DNA from: an uncultured Solirubrobacteraceae bacterium
GTDB taxonomy: Bacteria > Actinomycetota > Thermoleophilia > Solirubrobacterales > Solirubrobacteraceae
DNA: 64,000 nt
Direction of reading: 5' to 3'
Assembly: GCA_963796305.1 (NCBI GenBank)
Contig: CAWCKZ010000006.1
Coordinates: 511,210-575,209 of the forward strand
The stretch's first letter is position 1; each line of letters opens with the position of its first letter. The notes below the pieces were generated by a model, which saw only the letters and a list, made by a program, of their open reading frames with translations, was not told where the DNA came from and ran no database searches. The position numbers and the translations under genes are program-made. Below, one piece after another: positions 12,673-55,331 of this stretch.

Positions 12673-14079
12673 TCAGGGGAGCGGCGTGATCGTGACGATG
12701 CTGCTCGGGGCGAGGAGCAGCTTCACCGCTCCATGGGCGAGGGCGGGCTGCGAGGTGACGAGCCCAGGAGCAAGCGCGCTCAGCGTTTCCACCCGCACGG
12801 GCCCGGCGGCGCGCACGATCACCGGGCGCGCCTGCGGGCGCTCGTTGTCGAGGATCAGCACCGGTACGCCTGCCGGCGTGGTGGCCGAGCTCGCGACCAG
12901 GCCGCGCACCGACAGCGTGCGCAGCGAGGATCCCGGCAGGAGCCACTGGTTGAGCGCCACGAGCGCGCTCTCGAGCGGCCGGGCGACGAGTTCGGGGCCG
13001 CGCATCACGAACGGGTCGTAGGCGCCGCCGCTGAAGTGGAAGCGCACCTCCTGGAACCCGGTCTTGAGGGCAGCGAGCACGAAGCGCACCGCCCACACGG
13101 CGGCGGCGGGTGAGTCCGAGACACCGGGCTGGCCTCCGCAGGAGACGGAGTTCGCCTCGGAGACGATCGCGGGAACGCCCGCCGCGCGCGCGTCTGCGAC
13201 AACCCACGCCTGGCGGCGCGGCGCTTCCGCGGCGCTGGTGGAGAGAAGCCCTTTGATCGTCGCCGTCTTCGGCGTCGCACATACCGTGAGCGGATACGCG
13301 TGGACGCCCACCGCTTGCTCGTGCAGAGCCGCGATCACGCGTGGCAGTTCGCGCTGCCAGTGAGCGGCGCGCGCGAGTTCTGGGCCGATCAGCGGAAGCG
13401 ATCCGCCTGAGCTCTGCAGCAGGTAGCCGGCAACCTGCAGGTACAGGCTCACCTCTGACGCTTCTTCGCCCGGCAGCGGCTTGGCGAGCGAGGCGTAGTT
13501 GGGCAGGTAGTAGAGGTCGGGCTCGTTGCCGAGCGAGAAGTCGAGGCCCGCGGTGGCGGCGCTCTGCGCCCCCGCGACGATCTTCGCCGTCCACGACGGC
13601 GATCCGATCCGAGCGTTCAGGCCGACCGTGAGCGGGTCGCTCGAGCCCGTGAGCAGGCAGTGGAGCTGCGCCCAGAAGGCGCTCGGCAGCGGGTACGCCG
13701 TCACAGCCGTCCACGATTCTGGTGTGCCGCTCGCAGCTTCAGCCGGAACCGTGAGGTCTTGACTGACGCCCGACAGCGCGAGCGGGGGCGAGCCGAGCCG
13801 GACGAGCTCCGCCGTGAGCGCGGGCGGCGGGCACGGCCCGGTGCCGAGATAGCGCGCCATCAAGGGGTACTCGAGCGACAGCCCGACGGGACGCATCGTC
13901 ACCGGCACGCCCGATCCGGCGGGCGCCGCGGCGAGCGACACTTCGGAGGGCTTGACGGCGTGGCGCGCGGGGCCGTGCGTGGAGGCCGCCTGTGCGCCCG
14001 CCGACGCCCACAGGCATGCGAACGCGCAGGCGAGCGCGAGCAGCCTCAGGTGCGGCGGTCGCCAGGGACGGCGCGGCAT
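12673..14079 (-). CDS. Secreted glycoside hydrolase, GH79-like (clan A)
   Basis: Signal peptide, GLSLEY, acid/base GNEPDLY, HAYP and nucleophile region VSEANSVSCGG. Confidence 0.7.
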   Translation of the reverse strand: MPRRPWRPPHLRLLALACAFACLWASAGAQAASTHGPARHAVKPSEVSLAAAPAGSGVPVTMRPVGLSLEYPLMARYLGTGPCPPPALTAELVRLGSPPLALSGVSQDLTVPAEAASGTPESWTAVTAYPLPSAFWAQLHCLLTGSSDPLTVGLNARIGSPSWTAKIVAGAQSAATAGLDFSLGNEPDLYYLPNYASLAKPLPGEEASEVSLYLQVAGYLLQSSGGSLPLIGPELARAAHWQRELPRVIAALHEQAVGVHAYPLTVCATPKTATIKGLLSTSAAEAPRRQAWVVADARAAGVPAIVSEANSVSCGGQPGVSDSPAAAVWAVRFVLAALKTGFQEVRFHFSGGAYDPFVMRGPELVARPLESALVALNQWLLPGSSLRTLSVRGLVASSATTPAGVPVLILDNERPQARPVIVRAAGPVRVETLSALAPGLVTSQPALAHGAVKLLLAPSSIVTITPLP

Positions 14080-44083: not shown

Positions 44084-44097
44084 TACTCCACCGCGAA
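44084..44097 (+). repeat. Target-site direct repeat copy 1 (TACTCCACCGCGAA)
   Basis: Identical to 47231-47244 and 53720-53733; extends to 16 bp with the 53718 copy. Confidence 0.9.
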
Positions 44098-44122
44098 GAG
44101 AAGATAGATCCTGGCTCTCGAC

Positions 44123-44140
44123 CTGGACTAGCCGTGACAG
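44123..44140 (+). repeat. Left subterminal inverted repeat CTGGACTAGCCGTGACAG
   Basis: Exact reverse complement of 53676-53693; both lie about 25 bp inside the direct repeats. Confidence 0.9.
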
Positions 44141-44204
44141 GTCTTGGGCGGAGGGCCGATAGAGGGGCGGGGGGCTGCTGCTTCTCGTCTCTATGAAGGA
44201 GGGC

Positions 44205-44350
44205 TGGTTGTCAAGTGGCGATCTGTGGTTCGGGTCGTCGTCCTTTCACGGCTGTTGGTCTTGGAGCGACGCTCATGTCTCTATGGCCTCCTCATCGGGA
44301 GGACCAGGCGAAATTGGATGTTCGCTCGGGCGCAAGTCCAAAGAGGGCGG
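44205..44350 (-). ncRNA. Candidate seekRNA/bridge RNA region of the IS1111-type element
   Basis: Non-coding region after the transposase stop; contains CATAGAGAC (identical to the right-end/core sequence) and TTGGAC (identical to the target flank plus core). Confidence 0.6.
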
Positions 44351-45394
44351 TCAGGCCGCCAGACGAAAAGCGGCGCCTCGGGGAGCGAACTTCTCTTTGC
44401 GGGAAAGCATGTGCCAGATCGTGTGGGCGAGCCTTCGGGCGATGTCGACCTGGGCGACCTTGGCACCGCGCTGCTTTCCTAGCCGGCGCTTGGTTCGCTG
44501 GTACCGCTCGGAGTAGGCGGGGTGCCTCAGCGCGTGCATCGTCGCCTCGAGTAGCGCCCAGCGCAGGTAGGTCGGCCCGTGCTTGGTCAATGGGCCGCGG
44601 CGATCCTTCTCTCCAGACTGGTTCACGCGCGGACAAAGACCCGTGTAGCCGGCGAGCTTCTCTGGCGATGAGAAGCGCTCGATCTCGCCGATCTCGGCGG
44701 CGATCGTAAAGGCAAGGACCCAGCCGATCCCGGGCACCGTCAAGAGCAGCGGGACGTAGGGGTGCTCGGCGTGGCCCTCCTTCAGGCGGCGGTTGATCTC
44801 GGCGATCTGGCGTTCGAGGTCGTCGATCAGCTCGATCGAGGCGGTGATGTTGCCCCGCCAGGGCTCGGGCACCTGCAGTCGCTTCAACAGCCGGCGGCCC
44901 TCGACCCCGAACAGGTCGGTGACCGGGCACGGCTTGCCGAAGTTGATCAGGCTCGAGTGGATGCGGTTCTTGAGCGCCGACTTGTGCTTCACGAGATGCA
45001 ACCGGAAGCGGGCGAGCTCACGCTCCTCGCGGACGCTGGGATCGGGCAACCAGATCGCCGGCACCAGGTCGCGGTGACTGAGCACCGCAAGAACCTTCGA
45101 GTCGATCTTGTCGGTCTTGCACGCCAGCGGCGCGAGACCCTTGACCTTCTGGGCGTCGGCGATCTCGACAGACCAGCCCTGCTGCTCAAGCGTGTCGTGG
45201 ACGATCCTTGCGCCGGTCATCGACTCGATCACTGCGCAGACCGGCTGGCAATGGACTTCCTCGATGCGGCGAGCGAGCCTCCTAAGCGAGTCGACGTCGG
45301 GCGGCACGGCGAGCTGATCCAGATGCTCTCCCCGATCGGAGAGCAGGCAAACGTCAAGCTTCTTTCGACTTAGATCGAGTCCAGCGTGCAACAT
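44351..45394 (-). CDS. IS110 family transposase/recombinase
   Basis: AGLDLS, IES and KTDKID (DEDD); VPGIG, YTGLCP..QSG and LRWAL; AGGAGG RBS. Confidence 0.95.
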   Translation of the reverse strand: MLHAGLDLSRKKLDVCLLSDRGEHLDQLAVPPDVDSLRRLARRIEEVHCQPVCAVIESMTGARIVHDTLEQQGWSVEIADAQKVKGLAPLACKTDKIDSKVLAVLSHRDLVPAIWLPDPSVREERELARFRLHLVKHKSALKNRIHSSLINFGKPCPVTDLFGVEGRRLLKRLQVPEPWRGNITASIELIDDLERQIAEINRRLKEGHAEHPYVPLLLTVPGIGWVLAFTIAAEIGEIERFSSPEKLAGYTGLCPRVNQSGEKDRRGPLTKHGPTYLRWALLEATMHALRHPAYSERYQRTKRRLGKQRGAKVAQVDIARRLAHTIWHMLSRKEKFAPRGAAFRLAA

Positions 45395-45614
45395 GTAAAC
45401 GGGCCTCCTCGAGGTTGGTTCTCGATGACAAGCGGAGCTTGCCACCGAGGAGGCCCTCCTTCATGGCAGTCCAACCCAGGAGCCGAGGCGGTGTGCCTCG
45501 CCGCGCTCGCACCCGCACGGAAGCACTCGTGTCCGGCGCTTGCCGACCTGGGCCTCACACCGCGCGGTTATAGACTCCGCGGGCCCGCAGCCACGTTAGG
45601 TAGCGAGCGCCGAG

Positions 45615-47069
45615 ATGCCGAGCGACAAGATGAACCTGCTGCTGATCGTCACCGACCAAGAGCGCGCGCCGATGCACGTGCCGCCGGGGTTCGTGCAGAG
45701 CCGCCTAAGGACGCGCGAGCGGCTGTTGCGCAACGGTGTGAGCTTCGATAGCGCCGTCTGCAACGCGGCGATGTGCTCGCCGAGCCGCGCGACGTTCCTG
45801 ACCGGTGTGATGCCGGCTCGGCATGGGGTGCTCGACACGCTCACGACGAACGGTCCGGTATCTGCGACCGAGCGCGAGCTGCCCCTGGATCTGCCGAACA
45901 TCGCTTCGATGCTCGGCGCGGCCGGCTATGACGTCCACTACCGGGGGAAGTGGCATCTGAGCAAGCCATCCGGCGGCTCAGAGCTGACCGCCGATGACCT
46001 CGCACGCTACGGATTTCACGGCTGGGGAGCGCCGGATGCGGGCGAGGACACTCAGCCTGAGAACTTCGGAGGCGGCCGCGCTGGCCACGACGCTCGCTAC
46101 ATCCGCGAAGCGGTCGACTTCCTGGGGGAGCGCTCATCGGGAGTCTCGGAGCGTCCGTTCTGTCTTGTCCTTTCGCTCGTGAACCCTCACGACGTGCTCG
46201 CCTATCCGCGCAGCTGGTCGGATGACTACTCGGCCGAGGATCTCGAGGGCGACGTCGGTCTCCCGGCGAGCCACGGCGAGGACCTCGCGGGGAACCTCAA
46301 GCCGACGGCTCACGTGAAGATGGCTCCGATCCTCGACATGGCTGTTGGCGAGTTCGAGAGTGAGTCCGAGCGGCTGGCCTATGTGAACTTTTACGCGAAC
46401 CTGACTGCGAAGATAGACGAGCAGCTCGCGACGCTGATCGACCTGTTCTACGAGCGTGACGGCACGCCCACGAAGCTCGGCGAGGAGACGCTGATTGTTC
46501 GCTTCGCCGATCACGGAGAGCTCGCGATGTCCCACGGGGGTCTTCGCCAGAAGGCCTTCAACGTCTACGAGGAGACACTTCGCGTCCCGCTCATCTTCTC
46601 CAACCCACGCCTGGCGCCCAGCGGCGGCGGCGTGTGCGCGCACCCTGCGTCGCTCATCGACATCATCCCGACTGTCGCTTCGGTCCTGGACGTGAAGCCA
46701 ATCGAGCGCCTGGACGGAGCGGACCTCTCGCCGCTGATCCGCGAACCTGACGGGCCGGCGGTCCGAAAGGACGCTTATTTCACCTATGACGATCTCCACG
46801 CTAGCGCCGGGATGGTCAAGGAACTCCTGCCCGGGGTGCCAGGCAACATCCGCTGCGTGCGTGAGCCGCGTTTCAAGTTCGCGCGCTACTTCAACGAAGC
46901 CGGCGAGGCGCCCGACGAGCACGAGATGTACGACCTCGAGGCCGACCCCGGCGAGCTCGAGAACCTCGCCCACCCAGCGCACCCGCGCTTCTCCGACCCA
47001 GTCATCTGCTCAGAGCGGGAGCGCCTCGCATCACGCCTGGCGCAGCTCGAGCAGCAGCACACCGGGTAG
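45615..47069 (+). CDS. Sulfatase-like hydrolase
   Basis: TDQE, CSPSRATFLTG (FGly motif), GKWHL, NPHD, ADHGE and YDL..DPGE..NL. Confidence 0.9.
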   Translation: MPSDKMNLLLIVTDQERAPMHVPPGFVQSRLRTRERLLRNGVSFDSAVCNAAMCSPSRATFLTGVMPARHGVLDTLTTNGPVSATERELPLDLPNIASMLGAAGYDVHYRGKWHLSKPSGGSELTADDLARYGFHGWGAPDAGEDTQPENFGGGRAGHDARYIREAVDFLGERSSGVSERPFCLVLSLVNPHDVLAYPRSWSDDYSAEDLEGDVGLPASHGEDLAGNLKPTAHVKMAPILDMAVGEFESESERLAYVNFYANLTAKIDEQLATLIDLFYERDGTPTKLGEETLIVRFADHGELAMSHGGLRQKAFNVYEETLRVPLIFSNPRLAPSGGGVCAHPASLIDIIPTVASVLDVKPIERLDGADLSPLIREPDGPAVRKDAYFTYDDLHASAGMVKELLPGVPGNIRCVREPRFKFARYFNEAGEAPDEHEMYDLEADPGELENLAHPAHPRFSDPVICSERERLASRLAQLEQQHTG

Positions 47070-47135
47070 GCGGTTCGATCGGCGCGTCGCGGCGGCCGGC
47101 GGCGTTGCGAGCGCAAACCCGTCAGGCCACAGAGA

Positions 47136-47165
47136 CCGGACCGCTCGCAGCGGAAGGCGGTCCGG
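47136..47165 (+). terminator. GC hairpin downstream of the sulfatase
   Basis: CCGGACCGC-N12-GCGGTCCGG; no U-tract. Confidence 0.35.
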
Positions 47166-47230
47166 CCGCAGCACCGCGCCAACGCCGCAGCGGTTGCCAG
47201 CCTCAATCGTTTCCCGAGCCAGCTCCACGG

Positions 47231-47244
47231 TACTCCACCGCGAA
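47231..47244 (+). repeat. Target-site direct repeat copy 2
   Basis: TACTCCACCGCGAA, intergenic, followed by GGGAG. Confidence 0.85.
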
Positions 47245-47323
47245 GGGAGTAAGGGAGCGCCCCTAAGTCGGACGCCGGTGACGAGTATCTCGGCAGCGAG
47301 TACGCGACCTTCAGCGTCTGAGG

Positions 47324-47349
47324 GGGATAGGAGATAGGGAGTCTGGGAA
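47324..47349 (+). repeat. Imperfect left terminal inverted repeat matching the 53695-53719 end
   Basis: GGGATAGGAGATAGGGAGTCTGGGAA versus GGGAGAGCAGATAGGGGGTC-GGGAA (22 identities, 1 gap). Confidence 0.7.
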
Positions 47350-47416
47350 TGGCCCCTCCGAGCGGCGAGTGCGATCCGTAGGGGCAGTTCAACGTGGTCG
47401 GCTTTGCGAGGGCGCG

Positions 47417-47876
47417 TTAGCGCCTTGCTCTCCGGTTCTGCCGCCGGCGCACGCCACAAACGGATACTGGACTCAACGGTCGGCCGATCGGGTCGATGAA
47501 CAGCGAGCACGGTCCCGAGCTGCCGGGCACCTTCCCCTCCAGGACGGTGGCGCTGTATGTGAGGCTGGCCCCGTCGAGGCGTGGGTTGGTGAGCGTCACG
47601 ACGACGTCCTCGGGCATCTGGTCACCCTCCTCGAGGAACGAGAGGACAGCGTTCGGAGGATCGTCGAGGAAGCTGTTTTCACCGTCTGCCCAGCCCTCTA
47701 ACGAACTGGGCGGCTGTGAGATGTCCGACGATGCGCTCGGGCCTGTCCGAGAACATCAGAGTTGAGGGCGCGAGATCGTGCAGCGTGAACTCGCCGTTGC
47801 GGCTCGTGACTCCCTGTGCGCTCTGTACGTATAGAGCCTCGAACTCGTCTGGCTGCACCTCTGGCTGTGATGACAT
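47417..47876 (-). CDS. Conserved hypothetical protein (frameshift near 47700)
   Basis: LYVQSA, FSDRPERIVG, SF..DPPNAVL and LFIDPIGRPLSPVSV; AAGGAGG RBS. Confidence 0.7.
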
Positions 47877-47987
47877 CTGAGCCTCCTTCTGGGGCGTCGA
47901 ACATTCGCTTCGGACGAAGCACAGCGGACATCCTCCAATGGCGCGCGACAGCTTCCATCGGTAGTCGCCCGCACAGGGTTCCGCTGT

Positions 47988-48635
47988 TCAGCGGCGGGAC
48001 CGGCGGCGGGACTGGTGTCGTGGAAGCGCCGCGAAGAGGATCATGTATAGCGCGACCGCGAAGTAGAGCGCTACGGCCACCCGGGGTGCGACGAGCCCGA
48101 TCAGGATCGCGACCAGGTACCCGCCGAGCACGGGAAGCAGTTCGAGGGGCTCATCCTGCTGCGCTTCGCCGGCTTCCGGGGGCGAGGAGAGATGCTCGCG
48201 TCGGGCATAGGCGTCCAGGGCGAAGCCGAGAACCCGGATGGCCAGCAAGGTGAGCCCGTACATCGTCACAAAGACGCGCTCGCTTGTGTTGGAGTGCAAG
48301 GCGTCCGCGACTAGTTTCGTCGGGAATGGCAGGAACGCCACCACGAGCAACACCAGCAGGTTGATTCGCAGAAACAGCGGATCTGTCCGCGTGAGCCCCT
48401 CGGTGAGCTGCGTGTGTCCCAGCCAGGCTGCGCCGATCGTGAGGAAGCTGACGACATACGCGAAGTAGAACGGCCAGGCTTTGAGCACCTGTTCGAGTGC
48501 TGTGCCCGGCGGATGAATCGCGATGTCGAGCACGAGCAGCGTCGCGGCGATCGAGAACACGCCGTCGCTGAACGCTTCCATACGCGTAGTGCTGAGCGAT
48601 CGGCGCGCGCGCGGCAAGTCGTCGCCGGAGGCCAT
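47988..48635 (-). CDS. TMEM175 (DUF1211) family potassium channel
   Basis: RMEAFSDGVFSIAATLLVL, YVVSF..IG..W..H and FLPFPT. Confidence 0.9.
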   Translation of the reverse strand: MASGDDLPRARRSLSTTRMEAFSDGVFSIAATLLVLDIAIHPPGTALEQVLKAWPFYFAYVVSFLTIGAAWLGHTQLTEGLTRTDPLFLRINLLVLLVVAFLPFPTKLVADALHSNTSERVFVTMYGLTLLAIRVLGFALDAYARREHLSSPPEAGEAQQDEPLELLPVLGGYLVAILIGLVAPRVAVALYFAVALYMILFAALPRHQSRRRSRR

Positions 48636-48828
48636 GCGGCATCCTTACAGGTCGCCGATCGAGACTCAGATGGCCCAGCCACGAGCGGCCAGGGGCAGGC
48701 GAAACACGGACTGGCGACCGTATTACTCCCGGATGCTCGCCAGCCCCTCCGAGGCGCATAGTGCGCCGCAGAAGGACGGTGCGGGGGGCGGAGATCTCTC
48801 GCGGCTATCACGATGAGGAGGTCAGATC

Positions 48829-49404
48829 GTGTCTACGCTTGATGAGGAGCACGGTGCACTAGCACGCGCTTGGTGGTTGGTGATGTTGTTCGGCGCGGCG
48901 GTATTCTGCGTCGGCGTCTTCTTCGTCGTTTCACCACACGAAACGCTGAGCACGTTCACCGTGATCGCCGGGATCTTTCTGCTGGTCGACGGGTTACTGG
49001 CAATCGGCACGTCGATCTTCGCCAGAGGGGAAGGGCGCGGCATGCTGGCGTTGATCGGGGTGCTCAGCGCGATCGCCGGCCTGGTCCTCATCAAGAAACC
49101 GTTCGGCACGCTCGTCGTCTTCGTGCTCGTCCTCGGAGTGTGGTTCATCGTGGCCGGCGTGGTGCGCTTCGTTTCCGCTTTCGGTGAGCCCGAGGGGCGT
49201 GCGTCGAACATCGCGATCGCGATCCTCGACGTAGTCGCCGGCATCGTCATCCTGTCCTGGCCCGGTATCGGCCTGACCACGCTCGCAGTGATAATCGGCA
49301 TCGTGCTAATCGTGCGCGGCGCCCTGTTCTTCATAGGCGGCTGGGAGCTGCGCCGACTCGGTCACGAAGCCGACAGCGCACTAAGGGCGCACCCCGCAAC
49401 CTGA
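48829..49404 (+). CDS. HdeD/DUF308 membrane protein
   Basis: WW N-terminus and six TM helices in a repeated G..G pattern. Confidence 0.8.
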   Translation: MSTLDEEHGALARAWWLVMLFGAAVFCVGVFFVVSPHETLSTFTVIAGIFLLVDGLLAIGTSIFARGEGRGMLALIGVLSAIAGLVLIKKPFGTLVVFVLVLGVWFIVAGVVRFVSAFGEPEGRASNIAIAILDVVAGIVILSWPGIGLTTLAVIIGIVLIVRGALFFIGGWELRRLGHEADSALRAHPAT

Positions 49405-49525
49405 CAGTCGAAATACCTGGGGTCGTGGCGCGGGGCGTCGAATGGTTTGTCCGAGCGCCGTAGACCCGCGTAGGTGGGCCGCCGACGCTGACAATCAGAA
49501 CCTCGTTCAAACAAAAGGAGAGCCG

Positions 49526-49986
49526 ATGTTCAAGACCTTCAGCAGACCGGCAGTCGTAGCGGCAATTCTGCTTCTCCCGATAGGGCTGGCCGCGTGTGGC
49601 GAATCGTCTGAAGAAAAAGCGACAGCGCAGGTCTGCTCCTCCACCAAGGAAATCCAGGCCCAGCTCTCCAAACTGTCAAGCCTGTCGATTTCCTCAACGG
49701 CACCGGAAGAAATCAAGACCGCCGCCGAAGTGATGAAAAAGGAAGCGGCGAAGATCAACGAATCCGTCTCCGAATCTGCCCGCTTCGAGCAAGAGTCAAG
49801 TGGAAACCGCGCAGAAAGCGCTCCAGGCCGAGCTTGTAGCACTCGCGAAAGACTGCGGCGTCAACAGCAAAATCCTCAGGGAACGTCGAAGCCGTGCTCA
49901 AGGAATCCGCGCCCGCGGTGAAGACTGCGGTCGCCGGGCTTGCGGTGAGCTACAAGCAGGCATTCGAATCCCTGAAATGCTCTTAG
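49526..49986 (+). CDS. Lipoprotein (frameshifted)
   Basis: AAGGAG RBS, lipobox LAAC, VC...C-terminal Cys. Confidence 0.65.
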
Positions 49987-50236
49987 CTCGGTGTTGAGGG
50001 CCTCTCTCGGCGAGATTCCACGATGACTGCGGGCGGCGGAATCCGGGGTCGCCATCGCCACCGAGGGCACGTACTGGACGCGCGACTCGTCTGCATGAAG
50101 TAAAGGGACTCGCCTGCGGAAAAGCACCGACTTTGGCGCGGGCTTTCGCGGGATGCCCAGAGGGCGGACAAAAGGCATGGTTTATTGCGAATGCGCCCGG
50201 CGACGGGCGAACTACGAAGCCTGAACAGGAGATCGA

Positions 50237-50749
50237 ATGAGCGACAACCCGGTTTTCATCTACGCCGCGACCTACGCCGACCGCGCCGGCGCCGAAGCGG
50301 ACTACGACGCCCTTCTTGAACTGCATGCGGCGAAGCTCGTGGGCACCTATGACGTTGCGCTGGTCACCAAGGACGCTGATGGCAAGGTCCAGGTCGAGAA
50401 GCACGAGAAGCCCACCCAGCACGGAGCATGGGGAGGCATCGCCGTCGGAGCGGCGGTCGGGGTCGTGGCCGCGCCAGCGGTCATCCCCGCGGCACTGGTC
50501 GGCGGTGTCATCGGAGGTCTCGGCGGACACTTCAAAAAGGGCATCCCGGGGGACGCCGCCAAGGAACTGGGCGACCTCATCGAAGCCGGAGAGGCAACGC
50601 TGTTCGTGATCGGCGAATCGCGCCTTGAAGAACAGCTCGACAAGCTGCTCACGCGCGCTGAAAAGACGGTCGAGAAGGAAATCGACGTCGACGCCAAGGA
50701 GTTCAAGAAGGAACTCGACAAGGCCGAGAAGGAATACGCGGCGGCCTAG
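50237..50749 (+). CDS. DUF1269 family protein
   Basis: YD.A.V.KD.DGKV followed by a glycine-zipper hairpin. Confidence 0.8.
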   Translation: MSDNPVFIYAATYADRAGAEADYDALLELHAAKLVGTYDVALVTKDADGKVQVEKHEKPTQHGAWGGIAVGAAVGVVAAPAVIPAALVGGVIGGLGGHFKKGIPGDAAKELGDLIEAGEATLFVIGESRLEEQLDKLLTRAEKTVEKEIDVDAKEFKKELDKAEKEYAAA

Positions 50750-50784
50750 CCGGCCGATATCCCAGCGTGTGAGCGTGGAAGGGC

Positions 50785-52449
50785 GTGAACGAGGTGTCGA
50801 GTAAGGCAGCCGCGGCAGCGGCCGGCGGTGTTCTGCTGACGCTGTGCGCGGGCCAGTTCCTGATGATGCTCGACAGCTCGGTGATGAACGTGTCGATCGC
50901 GACGGTCGCAAAGGACGTCGGCACGACCGTCACCGGGATCCAGACGGCGATCACGCTCTACACGCTGGTGATGGCCGCGTTCATGATCACCGGCGGGAAG
51001 GTCGGCCAGATCATCGGCCGCAAGCGCGCCTTCGCGATCGGGTGCGTGATCTACGGCTGCGGCTCGTTCATCACGGCGATCTCTACGAGCCTCGGGGTGC
51101 TGCTGCTCGGATGGTCCTGCCTCGAGGGCATCGGGGCGGTGCTGATCCTGCCGTCGATCGTCGCGCTGGTGGCGGTGAACTACGGAATCGACGAACGGCC
51201 GCGCGCCTACGGGCTGATCGCCGCCGCGACCGCGATCGCGATCGGGGTCGGCCCGATCGTTGGCGGCCTGTTCACCACCTACCTCTCGTGGCGCTGGGTG
51301 TTCGCGGGCGAGGTAGTGATCGTGCTGGGGATTCTCGTCCTCGCCCGCCGCATACCCGAGGGGCCGCGTGAGAAGGGGGGGCACCTGGACCTCGTGGGGA
51401 CAGCGCTGTCGGCGCTTGGACTCGGGCTGATCGTGTTCGGGGTCCTGCGTTCGGGCGTGTGGGGTTTCGTCAAACCCAAACCGGGGGCCCCCGAATGGAT
51501 CGGGCTCTCGCCCGTGATCTGGCTGATGCTCGCGGGCGCTCTGGTCATCTATCTGTTCATTGAGTGGGAGGATCGGGTGCTCGCCCGCGGCGGCGAGCCG
51601 CTGATCGACCCCAAGATCCTGCAGGTCCACGTGCTGCGCGGCGGCCTGAACTCGTTCTTCTTTCAGTTCTTCGTGCAAAGCGGCGTGGCCTTTGCCGTCC
51701 CGCTGTTCCTCTCGGTCGCGCTCGGGCTCTCCGCGATCCAGACAGGCGTGAGGTTTCTGCCGCTGTCGATCGCCCTGATCCTCGCGGCAGCCGGCATCCC
51801 CAAGCTCTTCCCCAAAGCATCGCCGCGCCGGGTGGTCCGGCTCGGTTTCATTGCGATGTTTGCCGGCCTCGTGATCTTGGTCGCGGCGCTCCAGGAAGGC
51901 GCGGGTGCGGAGATAACCACCTTCCCGATGCTGCTCGTCGGCCTGGGAATCGGAGCGTTGTCCTCCCAGCTCGGGGCCGTCACCGTCTCCTCCGTTCCCG
52001 ATGAGCAGAGCAGCGCGGTGGGCGGGCTGCAGAACACGATCACCAACCTCGGCATCTCCATGGGCACCGCGCTGACGGGAGCGATCGTCATCGCGGCGCT
52101 CAGCACCTCGTTCCTGACGGGGGTGCAGCAAAACTCCGCCGTCCCCGCGCCGGTCAAATCGCAGGCCTCCACCCAGCTCGCCGGAGGCGTCCCCTTCATC
52201 TCCGACAAACAATTGACGGAGGCGCTCCACAAGGCCCATGTGCCACCAAGGGCCACAGACGCCATCGTCGAAGAGAACGCGAAAGCGCGCCTCGACGGGC
52301 TGCGCGAGGCACTGTCGATACTCGCAATCTTCGCCTTGATCGGACTGGCCTTCAGCCGGCGGATCCCTGCCGACCCACCCGGTTCGTCGAAAGAACCGGC
52401 TCCCGCGGCAGAAACGGCCCCCATAACGCAAACGGCTGCAGCAGCGTGA
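50785..52449 (+). CDS. MFS transporter (14-TM DHA2-like)
   Basis: QFLMMLDSSVMNVS, GGKVG.IIGRKR and GPIVGG....SWRW. Confidence 0.9.
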   Translation: MNEVSSKAAAAAAGGVLLTLCAGQFLMMLDSSVMNVSIATVAKDVGTTVTGIQTAITLYTLVMAAFMITGGKVGQIIGRKRAFAIGCVIYGCGSFITAISTSLGVLLLGWSCLEGIGAVLILPSIVALVAVNYGIDERPRAYGLIAAATAIAIGVGPIVGGLFTTYLSWRWVFAGEVVIVLGILVLARRIPEGPREKGGHLDLVGTALSALGLGLIVFGVLRSGVWGFVKPKPGAPEWIGLSPVIWLMLAGALVIYLFIEWEDRVLARGGEPLIDPKILQVHVLRGGLNSFFFQFFVQSGVAFAVPLFLSVALGLSAIQTGVRFLPLSIALILAAAGIPKLFPKASPRRVVRLGFIAMFAGLVILVAALQEGAGAEITTFPMLLVGLGIGALSSQLGAVTVSSVPDEQSSAVGGLQNTITNLGISMGTALTGAIVIAALSTSFLTGVQQNSAVPAPVKSQASTQLAGGVPFISDKQLTEALHKAHVPPRATDAIVEENAKARLDGLREALSILAIFALIGLAFSRRIPADPPGSSKEPAPAAETAPITQTAAAA

Positions 52450-52486
52450 CTTTGCCCAGCTCAGCCACAAAGGATCGTGGTCGCGG

Positions 52487-53185
52487 ATGCCTGAGGGTCT
52501 TTCAGCGACCGAGGTGGGCAAAGAGATCGCCGAGCATCGCGAGCACCACGCCCCAGAGGATCACTCCCGGCGTGACCGCTACGTTTCGATCGCTGAGGCC
52601 GTGCTGCTCTCGCTCGTGGCGATCATGGCCGCATGGTCGGGGTACGCAGCGGCCAAGTGGGGCACCGACTCCTCGCTTTCACTGGCGAAAGCCTCCTCCA
52701 CACGGACGAAAGCCAACCAAGCCGCCATCGAAGCGACGCAGATCCGCACGCTGGACTCGGTGGACTTCAATGCCGCAATCACTGCCTACGCCTCGCACAA
52801 TCCCCTGCTCTTCCGCGTCGCGCTCAAGCGGCTGCGCCCGAGCGCACTCGCCGCCGTCGAAGCATGGCGGGCCACCAAGCCCCTCACGAACCCAAACGCG
52901 CCAGCGGATCCGTCTGACATGCCGCAGTACCGGATACCACAACAGGCCCAAGCCAAGGCCCTGAACGCGAAGGCCGATGCCTACTTCAACCGCGGCCAGT
53001 CAGCCGCTGGAACGGCAGACAAGTACGTGCGCCTCACAGTCTTCCTGGCGGCCGTCCTATTCCTCGTCGGGATCGGTAGCCGCCTTCCGCTGCCCGCCGC
53101 TCGCTACGGGCTGGTCGGGGTCGCCAGCGTGATGTTCGTCGTATCGGTCGTGGAGCTCCTCAGCCTTCGGGGACCACCGAGCTGA
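52487..53185 (+). CDS. Membrane protein (DUF4337-like)
   Basis: EAVLLS...AWSGY.AAKW; one N-terminal and two C-terminal TM helices. Confidence 0.65.
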   Translation: MPEGLSATEVGKEIAEHREHHAPEDHSRRDRYVSIAEAVLLSLVAIMAAWSGYAAAKWGTDSSLSLAKASSTRTKANQAAIEATQIRTLDSVDFNAAITAYASHNPLLFRVALKRLRPSALAAVEAWRATKPLTNPNAPADPSDMPQYRIPQQAQAKALNAKADAYFNRGQSAAGTADKYVRLTVFLAAVLFLVGIGSRLPLPAARYGLVGVASVMFVVSVVELLSLRGPPS

Positions 53186-53375
53186 CGCCGCGTAGCGCCT
53201 CCCAATGCCGCGGGTGGGGGACGCGCTTCCCGAGCCGGATAAGCGAGCAGTAGTGCTCGGATAGGTCGGTGGCGGCGACGAGCTTCCCGATGGGCAGGTA
53301 CCGCAGGCCGGGCAGGATCTCGCTCGTGAAAACCGCTGGGTCGGGTCGCCCCCCGGCCCACGCCTTGACGGCGAC
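53160..53375 (-). pseudogene. C-terminal HTH remnant resembling solo Cas1 (casposase-like) proteins
   Basis: W..GRPDPAVF..EILPGL...ATDLSEHYCSLIRLGKRVPHPRHW; recalled resemblance only; no Cas1 catalytic domain present. Confidence 0.55.
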
Positions 53376-53630
53376 GCGTTCGCGCGGCGAAGGTTCGACG
53401 TTCTGCTTTCGCGCGCCCGTGAGACAATCCGTCTGCCTTACGACGAACCGAGCGAGAAGGCCTACTTGAAGGCGGGCCAAGAGATCGCTAACCAAAGTGA
53501 GGTCTTGCTTGCCGTCTGGGACGGCCAACCAGCGGGAGGTCTCGGCGGCACCGCCGACGTCGTTCGTTATGCGCTTGGGAGCGGCACGAACGTGAAAGTC
53601 GTTTGGCCTGCGGGCTGCGCCCGCGTATGA
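53373..53630 (+). pseudogene. 5'-truncated SLOG-superfamily (YspA-like) gene, absent from the ORF track
   Basis: Translates RRFDVLLSRARETIRLPYDEPSEKAYLKAG...LLAVWDGQPAGGLGGTADVVRYA...VVWP; TGA at 53628; no start codon. Confidence 0.7.
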
Positions 53631-53675
53631 CGTGGTTGATCCGGCCAGGGCTTGGCTGATCCCGCCCGTGGCGTG

Positions 53676-53719
53676 CTGTCACGGCTAGTCCAGCTTCCCG
53701 ACCCCCTATCTGCTCTCCC
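53676..53719 (-). repeat. Right end of the element (terminal and subterminal inverted repeat)
   Basis: Reads inward GGGAGAGCAGATAGGGGGTCGGGAAG-CTGGACTAGCCGTGACAG. Confidence 0.85.
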
Positions 53720-55203
53720 TACTCCACCGCGAACGCGACGTACTTCGTCTCGAGGTACTCCTCGATCCCCTCGAAGCCGCCCTCGCGGCCGAAGCCCGAC
53801 TGCTTGACGCCGCCGAAGGGGGCGGCGGCGTTGGACACCATGCCCTGGTTGAGCCCCACCATCCCGGTTTCGATCCCCTCGCACACGCGGAAGGCCCTGC
53901 CGAGGTCGCGCGTGTAGACGTAGGCGACGAGCCCGTACTCGGTGCGGTTGGCGGCGGCGATCGCCTCCGCCTCACTCGTGAACGCGCACACCGGAGCGAC
54001 CGGGCCGAAGATCTCCTCGCTCAGCAGCCGCGCATCCGCGGGCACGTCGGCGAGCACGGTGGGCTCGAAGAAGTAGCCGCGGCCGTCCACGGCGCTGCCG
54101 CCGATCAGCACCTTCGCGCCGCGATCCGCGGCATCGCCGACGAGCTCCTCCACCTTGCCGCGCTGAGCAGCGTCGATCAGCGGCCCGACGTCCACGCCCT
54201 CATCGGTGCCGCGGCCGAGCTTCAGCTCGCTCATGCGCTGGGCGAGCCGTGCGGCGAACTCGCCGGCAAGCGACTCGTGCACGTGGAAGCGGTTGGCGGC
54301 GGTGCACGCCTCGCCGACGTTGCGCATCTTCGCGAGCATCGCGCCGTCCACCGCCGCGTCGAGGTCGGCGTCCTCGAACACGACGAACGGAGCGTTGCCC
54401 CCGAGCTCCATCGACACCCTCAGCACCTGATGCGCCGACTGCTCGATCAGCCTCCGTCCGACCTCTGTGGACCCCGTGAACGAGAGCTTGCGCGTGCGCG
54501 GATCCTTCAGCAGCGGTTCCACCACCGCGCTCGAGCGCCTCGCCGTGATCACGTTGAGCACGCCCTCGGGCAGTCCCGCCTCCTCGAGGATGCGCGCGAG
54601 CGCGAGCATCGAGAGCGGCGTCTGCTGCGCGGGCTTCACCACCATCGTGCAGCCGGCGGCGATCGCCGGAGCGATCTTGCGCGTCCCCATCGCGGTGGGG
54701 AAGTTCCAGGGCGTGACGAACACACACGGTCCCACCGGCTGGTGCATCGTGAGGATCCGGCCATTGCCCGTCGTGTTCACCATGTAGCGGCCGTGGATCC
54801 GCACCGCCTCCTCGGAGAACCAGCGGAAGAACTCTGCGGCGTAGGTGATCTCCGCCCGCGACTCGGCGAGCGCCTTACCCATCTCGAGCGTCATCAGCAG
54901 AGCGAGTTCGTCGCGCTGCTCGACGATCGCCTCGAATGCCCGGCGCAGGATCTCGCCGCGCTCGCGCGGAGCGTGAGCGCCCCACGCCGCCTGCGCGTCC
55001 GCGGCGGCGGCGAGCGCGTCGAGCGCATCCTGCTCCTGGGCGTCCGCCACCTCCACCAGCGCCTCGCCCGTCGCCGGGTCCTCGACGGGGAGCGTGCCGC
55101 CGCCCGAGGCCGCGCGCCAGCGCCCGCCGATGAAGAGCTCCTTCGGTGCCCGGTCGAGCACCGCCTGCTCTGAGGGAGCCGCCGTGATCGTGCCGTCGCT
55201 CAC
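53719..55203 (-). CDS. gabD: NAD(P)-dependent succinate-semialdehyde dehydrogenase
   Basis: PWNFP, FTGSTEVG, MELGGNAP, EACTAANR, EEIFGP and PFGGVKQSG.GREG. Confidence 0.88.
   Translation of the reverse strand: MSDGTITAAPSEQAVLDRAPKELFIGGRWRAASGGGTLPVEDPATGEALVEVADAQEQDALDALAAAADAQAAWGAHAPRERGEILRRAFEAIVEQRDELALLMTLEMGKALAESRAEITYAAEFFRWFSEEAVRIHGRYMVNTTGNGRILTMHQPVGPCVFVTPWNFPTAMGTRKIAPAIAAGCTMVVKPAQQTPLSMLALARILEEAGLPEGVLNVITARRSSAVVEPLLKDPRTRKLSFTGSTEVGRRLIEQSAHQVLRVSMELGGNAPFVVFEDADLDAAVDGAMLAKMRNVGEACTAANRFHVHESLAGEFAARLAQRMSELKLGRGTDEGVDVGPLIDAAQRGKVEELVGDAADRGAKVLIGGSAVDGRGYFFEPTVLADVPADARLLSEEIFGPVAPVCAFTSEAEAIAAANRTEYGLVAYVYTRDLGRAFRVCEGIETGMVGLNQGMVSNAAAPFGGVKQSGFGREGGFEGIEEYLETKYVAFAVE
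53720..53733 (+). repeat. Target-site direct repeat copy 3 (last codons of the gabD-like gene)
   Basis: Minus strand TTC GCG GTG GAG TA(G) = F A V E stop. Confidence 0.9.
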
Positions 55204-55331
55204 CGATCCAACGTACCAAGCACAACCCATCCTGCAGGGCTAACGGCCGTCCCGGCGGTGCCGAGAGGGAGCACATGCGAGCCCAGCTCGACCGCTACCG
55301 CGGCAGCCTGCCAGTGTTTGGGTCCTCGAGC

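Follow-up and report, generated by a model that had tools for sequence, protein, structure and literature searches.

The window, a stretch of 64,000 nucleotides from an uncultured Solirubrobacteraceae bacterium, holds an island at the 3' end of an intact gabD-like aldehyde dehydrogenase gene (PF00171; minus strand, 53719-55230), the true start of which may lie slightly downstream of the ORF call. One 14-mer occurs in three copies in the 3.6-Mb genome, and all three lie in the island, on the plus strand, as copies of a target-site duplication (TSD). The first copy (44084-44097) marks the outer boundary, with an LLM oxidoreductase gene next to it; the second is found at 47231-47244; and the third (53720-53733) is the end of gabD itself, namely four codons and two bases of a stop codon to which the right terminal inverted repeat (TIR) contributes its first base as the third. 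Adjoining this last copy are the gabD codons for EYLETKYVA (53734-53760, minus strand), a conserved coding leader and the putative recognition site. The ends of the island were found by exact k-mer matching; a generic repeat search was swamped by GC-rich chance repeats.

The duplications separate the units of a stack. Unit A (44098-47230), distal to the leader and with eroded ends, consists of an IS110-family element, with its transposase gene at 44351-45445 on the minus strand, and a sulfatase gene (45615-47069); at its left end an 18-bp subterminal motif has been kept (44123-44140). Copies of the IS110-family transposase 90-96% identical to this one flank a cas1 tail in another locus, L042. 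Unit B is reduced to a 79-bp stub (47245-47323, plus strand) carrying a left TIR of a second TIR class, and the rest of the unit is missing from the window along with the duplication between B and C. Unit C (47324-53719), a decayed casposon, is bounded by a left TIR at 47324-47349 (plus strand), which matches the right tip at 20 of 26 ungapped positions, and by the gabD-proximal TIR at 53676-53719 (minus strand), made up of a 26-bp tip and an 18-bp subterminal motif. Between them lie cargo genes for TMEM175 (47988-48635), DUF308 (48829-49404), DUF1269 (50237-50749) and MFS (50785-52449) proteins and for a 232-aa membrane protein (52487-53185), the last of which overlaps a cas1 tail by 26 nt. 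A 5'-truncated cargo fragment on the plus strand (53391-53630) resembles YpsA/SLOG proteins, as a lead only (Atlas 0.95, PF06908 on 17% of cluster members; no Pfam or NCBIfam match to the fragment itself). It faces away from the cas1 tail and is absent from both sister elements within the sequence compared.

The island is a tandem stack of casposon units, now decayed, that abuts the end of gabD. The TIRs and TSD of its element are of the same class, and at the same site, as those of the intact casposons described below. The element has no catalytic Cas1 and no PolB and is not an autonomous casposon; no cas1 core, polB or cas2 was found in its own genome (80% complete).

What remains of the casposase (cas1-solo) gene in unit C is its 3' end, the last 70 codons and the stop codon (53160-53372, minus strand; stop at 53162-53160). 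This is exactly the frame quoted in an earlier note on this DNA, whose right-hand bound of 53375 agrees to within 3 nt with the start of homology at 53372. In tblastn, residues 442-507 of P0002 (510 aa) aligned to 53372-53175 at 86% identity with E 5e-31, and the closest full-length relative is likewise 86% identical to the remnant. The remnant represents residues ~442-510 of a protein of ~510 aa composed of Cas1, a C4 zinc ribbon and a helix-turn-helix (HTH). Two sister elements no longer resemble the window above 53370, where DNA identity is at background level; together with the start of homology, this places the break at about 53372. There, at 53373-53390, a deletion junction joins the cas1 tail to the unrelated, divergently oriented gene fragment. 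Short-read contigs from two runs span the break with 0 mismatches (53308-53536 and 53231-53472; both runs come from one study, possibly of the source site, and do not represent a second population), and an assembly error is thereby excluded.

The earlier note had seen no credible start for this frame, and we found none either. The in-frame ATG, GTG or TTG codons upstream of the remnant (53528, 53495 and 53480) all lie beyond the break, in the antisense of another gene fragment, and the sole other one, at 53177, falls within the last five codons. The interval from the break to the HTH is free of all three codons, the domain itself contains three in-frame CTG codons, and no promoter-like site was found in 52900-53800. 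A 122-aa ORF call at 53160-53528 was rejected as a gene, its first ~52 codons being the antisense of the SLOG-like fragment. Having neither a usable start nor the catalytic domain, which is missing from the window's copy of cas1, the tail is a pseudogene remnant. Its placement just inside the right TIR was also correct: that TIR is real and adjoins the 14-bp duplication, and ~300 bp separate its inner edge from the remnant. As the earlier note had said, the window yielded no CRISPR array.

The tail is predicted to fold as an Xre-type HTH, albeit with modest scores. A model of the 70-aa fragment consists of four helices (pLDDT 80), which recur in the model of the full-length protein, and the predicted HTH corresponds to helices 2-3 of this four-helix Xre/Cro-like domain (53232-53291, minus strand). 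Nearly all top fold matches were Xre/Cro-type HTHs, the best reaching E 0.43 in Foldseek and, in VIA, Z 5.6 with an rmsd of 4.0 over 63 aligned residues. Searches of the fragment against Pfam and NCBIfam profiles gave no match. A C-terminal HTH had been put forward as a known property of casposases; it does not hold for all of them, as family 1 and two members of family 3 lack it (PMC4046053).

A search for longer proteins returned 205 homologs. Among the 120 listed, 108 also aligned to the Cas1 core, 11 to the zinc ribbon and linker, and one to the HTH only, and the fragment matched at a median of 6 aa from the C-terminus. The supposition that the fragment is the tail of a long solo Cas1 is therefore borne out both by homology and by C-terminal position, most of the listed matches falling near the C-termini of proteins with a Cas1 core. 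In a search free of length limits, 80 of 147 representatives were short or tandem-HTH entries, and the best representative by E-value was a triple-HTH protein. The closest of the short and tandem-HTH entries, P0122 at 81%, proved to be a gene called on a further truncated cas1. Other entries, including P0121, carry two or three tandem copies of the casposase HTH without Cas1, and L013 contains, in addition to a near-complete cas1, a second, stand-alone zinc-ribbon and HTH half of a casposase (residues 373-495; L013:16964-17332).

The typical homolog, of ~510 aa, comprises a Cas1 core (PF01867, residues 18-304, E 9e-41), the zinc ribbon and the HTH tail. Of 87 sequences, 85-86 retain the catalytic residues E166, H249 and E264, and 83-86 the four zinc-ribbon cysteines (C374, C377, C389 and C392). 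Judged by these residues, the intact relatives carry a Cas1-family integrase with its catalytic site preserved. The best structural match to the AlphaFold model of the full-length protein (pLDDT 90) was the Methanosarcina mazei casposase 6OPM (E 2e-18); all CRISPR Cas1 structures ranked below it, 4N06 among them (2e-14). Databases label the homologs "CRISPR-associated endonuclease Cas1", and their scores against CRISPR subtype models lie far below the cut-offs. Named relatives come from Solirubrobacterales, Acidimicrobiales, Chloroflexota, Eremiobacterota and Acidobacteriota.

Upstream of cas1 the relatives carry a gene of 1000-1150 aa with polymerase and exonuclease motifs, including the family-B polymerase motifs DxxSMYP and DTDS. 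Its product scored 0.97 in the Atlas to clusters bearing DNA_pol_B_2 and matched PF03175 weakly, and searches of PDB sequences and NCBIfam gave no match. We found this polB in 28 loci and then in 7 of 7 later contigs with available DNA and a full-length cas1 (L229 by gene table); it is present in L002, L003, L013, L081, L082 and L224-L230. The gene tables of the relative loci contain no cas2, and repeat scans of 37 of these loci revealed no CRISPR array. A repeat run in L013 was rejected as a CRISPR, being a coding tandem repeat. Four loci hold a complete element at gabD, in which polB and cas1 lie between TIRs and the flanking 14-bp TSDs are identical: L003 (13.9 kb), L226 (17.6 kb), L227 (15.0 kb) and L228 (16.8 kb). 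The intact relatives are casposons, with a Cas1 integrase, PolB, TIRs and a TSD, and with neither cas2 nor an array. This combination of features in the relatives identifies the enzyme from which our fragment derives as a casposase. As a key clue to the mobilising enzyme, which the earlier note took it to be, the fragment does name that enzyme, but it cannot itself mobilise anything. In L227 a 137-aa gene beside polB matched DUF968 (E 4e-4) and HNHc_6 (E 0.06), both below cut-off. Related casposons with similar TIR tips and TSD-sized direct repeats occupy non-gabD sites in Acidimicrobiales, Eremiobacterota and Acidobacteriota (L011, L014, L016, L020, L025, L044 and L059).

Fourteen occupied gabD sites could be compared: cas1 had led to nine of them (the window included), the TIR alone to four and the junction pattern to one. 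In all 14 the TIR follows the codons for ETKY(V/I)A at an offset of exactly 14 nt; none of the other offsets between 8 and 21 was observed. A scan of metagenomes yielded 45 gabD junctions, and 30 of the 43 that were scored matched a TIR class beyond the searched bases, a slightly inflated figure in that one of the three TIR classes scored came from the hits themselves, as against 0 of 24 unselected gabD ends from the family. The duplicated 14-mers vary in the metagenomic set (26 kinds, mean identity 7/14; 2-8/14 to that of the window). The codons upstream of the duplication are nearly fixed, although protein-coding constraint alone would fix them. The fixed offset combined with a varying 14-mer points to targeting by a leader plus a ruler.

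Occupancy of gabD is low, at most 1 of 24 unselected genomes of the family. A search of 400 family genomes with the TIR alone gave ~11 with credible ends, 5 at gabD (our own genome included) and 6 elsewhere, credibility having been judged post hoc from a TIR match that extends further, a TSD that agrees or the exact offset. The one-mismatch TIR pattern gave 21 matches, no more than its reversed control (~28). One non-gabD match, L183, belongs to an unpublished genome (G003) and carries no claim alone. Thus, gabD is the main, preferred site, and not an exclusive one. In L176/L200 (G163:C82) the same TIR class occurs at a second protein-coding target, the 3' end of a response-regulator gene, in an element with a divergent cas1 (41%), and the sequence upstream of this target shares an 8-base stretch with the gabD leader, positioned 4 nt closer. 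No TIR was found at the response-regulator gene adjoining L230.

Several units at gabD have TIRs and a TSD and no enzyme. They include a 1.75-kb unit with perfect ends (G062, L198:1434-3187), one of 5.9 kb (G328, L199) and a stack of two units in G315 (L196). Together with a 718-bp element of L080 (below), such units range from 0.7 to 5.9 kb, occur singly or stacked and lack both cas1 and polB; we regard them as candidate non-autonomous mini-casposons.

Two relatives of the cargo element bear on its history. The sister strain L080 is 96-98% identical to the window (95.6% in unit C) and has a fourth boundary: at the position of unit B it carries a 718-bp, TSD-bounded mini-element (12687-13404) with 16-bp perfect ends. 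The more distant sister L231, 85% identical over 5.5 kb and bearing a near-identical TIR, sits at the gabD of another host in the opposite orientation; L231:10001-18075 corresponds to 47982-53372 of the window, and its far end lies beyond the 10-kb flank. The cas1 gene is truncated at a different point in each copy, being kept from residue 303 in L080, 431 in L231 and 442 in the window. Between the window and L231 the tail differs by 25 synonymous and 10 non-synonymous codons, which indicates purifying selection, as expected if the tail was part of a working enzyme until recently. We found no intact copy of the cargo element; the window, L080 and L231 all lack the catalytic domain, so an autonomous phase of this element is presumed rather than seen.

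In the tail, the window and L080 differ almost entirely within the 60 nt that adjoin the break (53310-53372), with a single further difference in the last 150 nt; this cluster is possibly a recombination patch from another casposase copy. In another locus, L026:3639-18838, a stack of at least three casposon-type units stands at gabD with near-identical 14-bp copies between them, and holds a further truncated cas1, of which residues 348-504 remain. We found no near-identical strain with an empty site; G637, the one genus member with the same LLM gene, shows no gabD in the 20 kb compared.

The explanation that we consider very probable is that a bacterial casposon akin to family 3 has decayed here and that the tail is what is left, without function, of the 3' end of its casposase gene. 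By analogy with the casposases of A. boonei and M. mazei, the enzyme would recognise the conserved coding leader and attach the TIR ends at two points, the nick nearest the leader and a second one 14 bp beyond it, the distance being set by a ruler and not by sequence. Gap repair would then duplicate the last codons, so that gabD stays intact, and the regenerated site could be used again, giving the stack of units A, B and C, of which the one beside gabD is probably the newest, as the erosion of the ends suggests. After insertion, deletion would have removed polB and most of cas1, independently in the three copies. The last 26 nt of the tail overlap the end of the retained, convergent cargo gene, which is most likely why it survived. 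The island would now be immobile unless a casposase were supplied in trans.

The timing of the loss could have been different. The cargo element may already have been dead when it spread, in which case it and the mini-units would be non-autonomous cassettes, moved in trans by casposases of other copies and stacked like an integron or a CRISPR array. All three copies lack the Cas1 core, and yet L231 lies in the opposite orientation at the gabD of another host; TIR- and TSD-bounded units without cas1 or polB exist in L080 (the 718-bp element), G062, G328 and the G315 stack; and in vitro the five terminal bases of the TIR suffice (PMC6614799). We nevertheless hold this account, the main rival, to be unlikely, though worth keeping in mind. 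The three different truncation points and the purifying selection on the tail of the 85%-identical pair both agree with decay that took place independently, after insertion as an autonomous element. Internal deletion in situ can also produce small units, and the 80% complete genome yielded no helper cas1.

Decay of a once working casposase gene also has to be weighed against retention of the tail for a function of its own. It is improbable that the tail is a small, working Xre-type DNA-binding protein that represses or blocks further casposition, since nothing between the break and the HTH could serve as an ATG, GTG or TTG start, no promoter-like site was found, and an isolated M. mazei HTH showed no DNA binding (PMC6977970). 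The tail is indeed retained in three sister elements and many other loci, but the breakpoints vary among copies, the overlap with the convergent cargo gene explains the retention, and searches seeded on this most conserved motif over-sample tails. This leaves in its favour the short and tandem HTH-only proteins such as P0121, the extra zinc-ribbon and HTH copy in L013, and a predicted fold that resembles, with modest scores, that of Xre regulators. An origin from a CRISPR-associated Cas1, a stand-alone HTH regulator or an assembly chimera has been largely refuted, and we give it hardly any credence. The database label of the homologs and the triple-HTH top representative might be cited for it; however, the relatives have no cas2 in their gene tables and no arrays in 37 loci, they score far below the CRISPR subtype cut-offs, the TIR class and target are common to intact PolB-bearing elements, and short-read contigs bridge the junction.

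The fragment itself is dead DNA, and its interest lies in the casposon clade, and the landing site in gabD, to which it ties the island. Casposases are the proposed ancestors of CRISPR Cas1. Casposons as such, the HTH tail, 14-bp duplications, tandem stacks and decayed copies are already in print. Our search of the literature, with most subscription papers outside its reach, found neither a gabD-targeting clade nor a protein-coding target for a bacterial casposon. The many natural sites, with a common upstream leader and a varying 14 bp, provide a natural comparison set for leader recognition. In M. mazei the casposase HTH is essential for integration and was unresolved in the crystal, and that it reads sequence upstream of the target is speculation only (PMC6977970). 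The clade would also offer a mesophilic, site-specific integrase that carries ~15 kb of cargo and leaves its target gene intact. A wider reading, tentative and on balance unlikely, has these casposons of soil actinobacteria taking the conserved last codons of gabD as their leader and stacking gene-carrying units in polarised order, with 14-bp repeats between them; Cas1-less mini-casposons and dead cargo elements, moved in trans, would be among the units. The clade would then be a natural intermediate between a transposon, an integron and a CRISPR array at a protein-coding landing site.

Among known systems, the element most resembles casposons of family 3. AceAut-C1 of Ca. "Acetothermum autotrophicum" (Krupovic et al. 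2014, PMC4046053) has a casposase of the same build, a Cas1 with a zinc-binding domain and an HTH at the C-terminus, and shares PolB, HTH accessory genes, TIRs with a TSD, a bacterial host, the lack of cas2 and array and possibly, as a candidate below cut-off, an HNH-like gene. The placement with family 3, which is one of likeness, relies on domain order and bacterial host and not on a tree with reference casposases; a quick Cas1 tree comprised sequences of this analysis only and was not used for family assignment. In contrast to family 3, which has been reported only in intergenic sites (PMC4779613), the gabD clade inserts into the last codons of a protein-coding gene; its PolB is long (1000-1150 aa) and divergent, and the copy in the window has no PolB and is reduced to a pseudogene remnant.

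Family 2 (M. mazei 6OPM and A. boonei) supplies the best structural match and several parallels: a C-terminal HTH essential for integration in M. mazei (PMC6977970), a TSD whose length of 14 bp is fixed by a ruler, together with a leader motif upstream (PMC6614799), and tandem stacks sharing TSDs as well as solo TIRs (PMC4779613). It differs in being archaeal, in its targets (tRNA 3' ends or intergenic sites), in an identity of only ~24%, and in that no zinc ribbon has been reported before the HTH. Family 1 of Nitrosopumilus, with aEF-2 as its target, holds the only casposons reported at the 3' end of a protein-coding gene (PMC4779613). Unlike the gabD clade, it is archaeal, has a casposase without HTH and a protein-primed PolB, and uses another target gene. 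The same logic is followed by Tn7 at attTn7 (glmS), where the conserved 3' end of a coding sequence marks the site, insertion occurs at a fixed distance and tandem islands accumulate. Tn7 differs in using a DDE transposase with TnsD and in inserting downstream of the gene, and the enzymes are unrelated. The TSD of Tn7 is 5 bp. The parallel between Tn7 and casposons has been drawn before (PMC6614799, PMC4046053).
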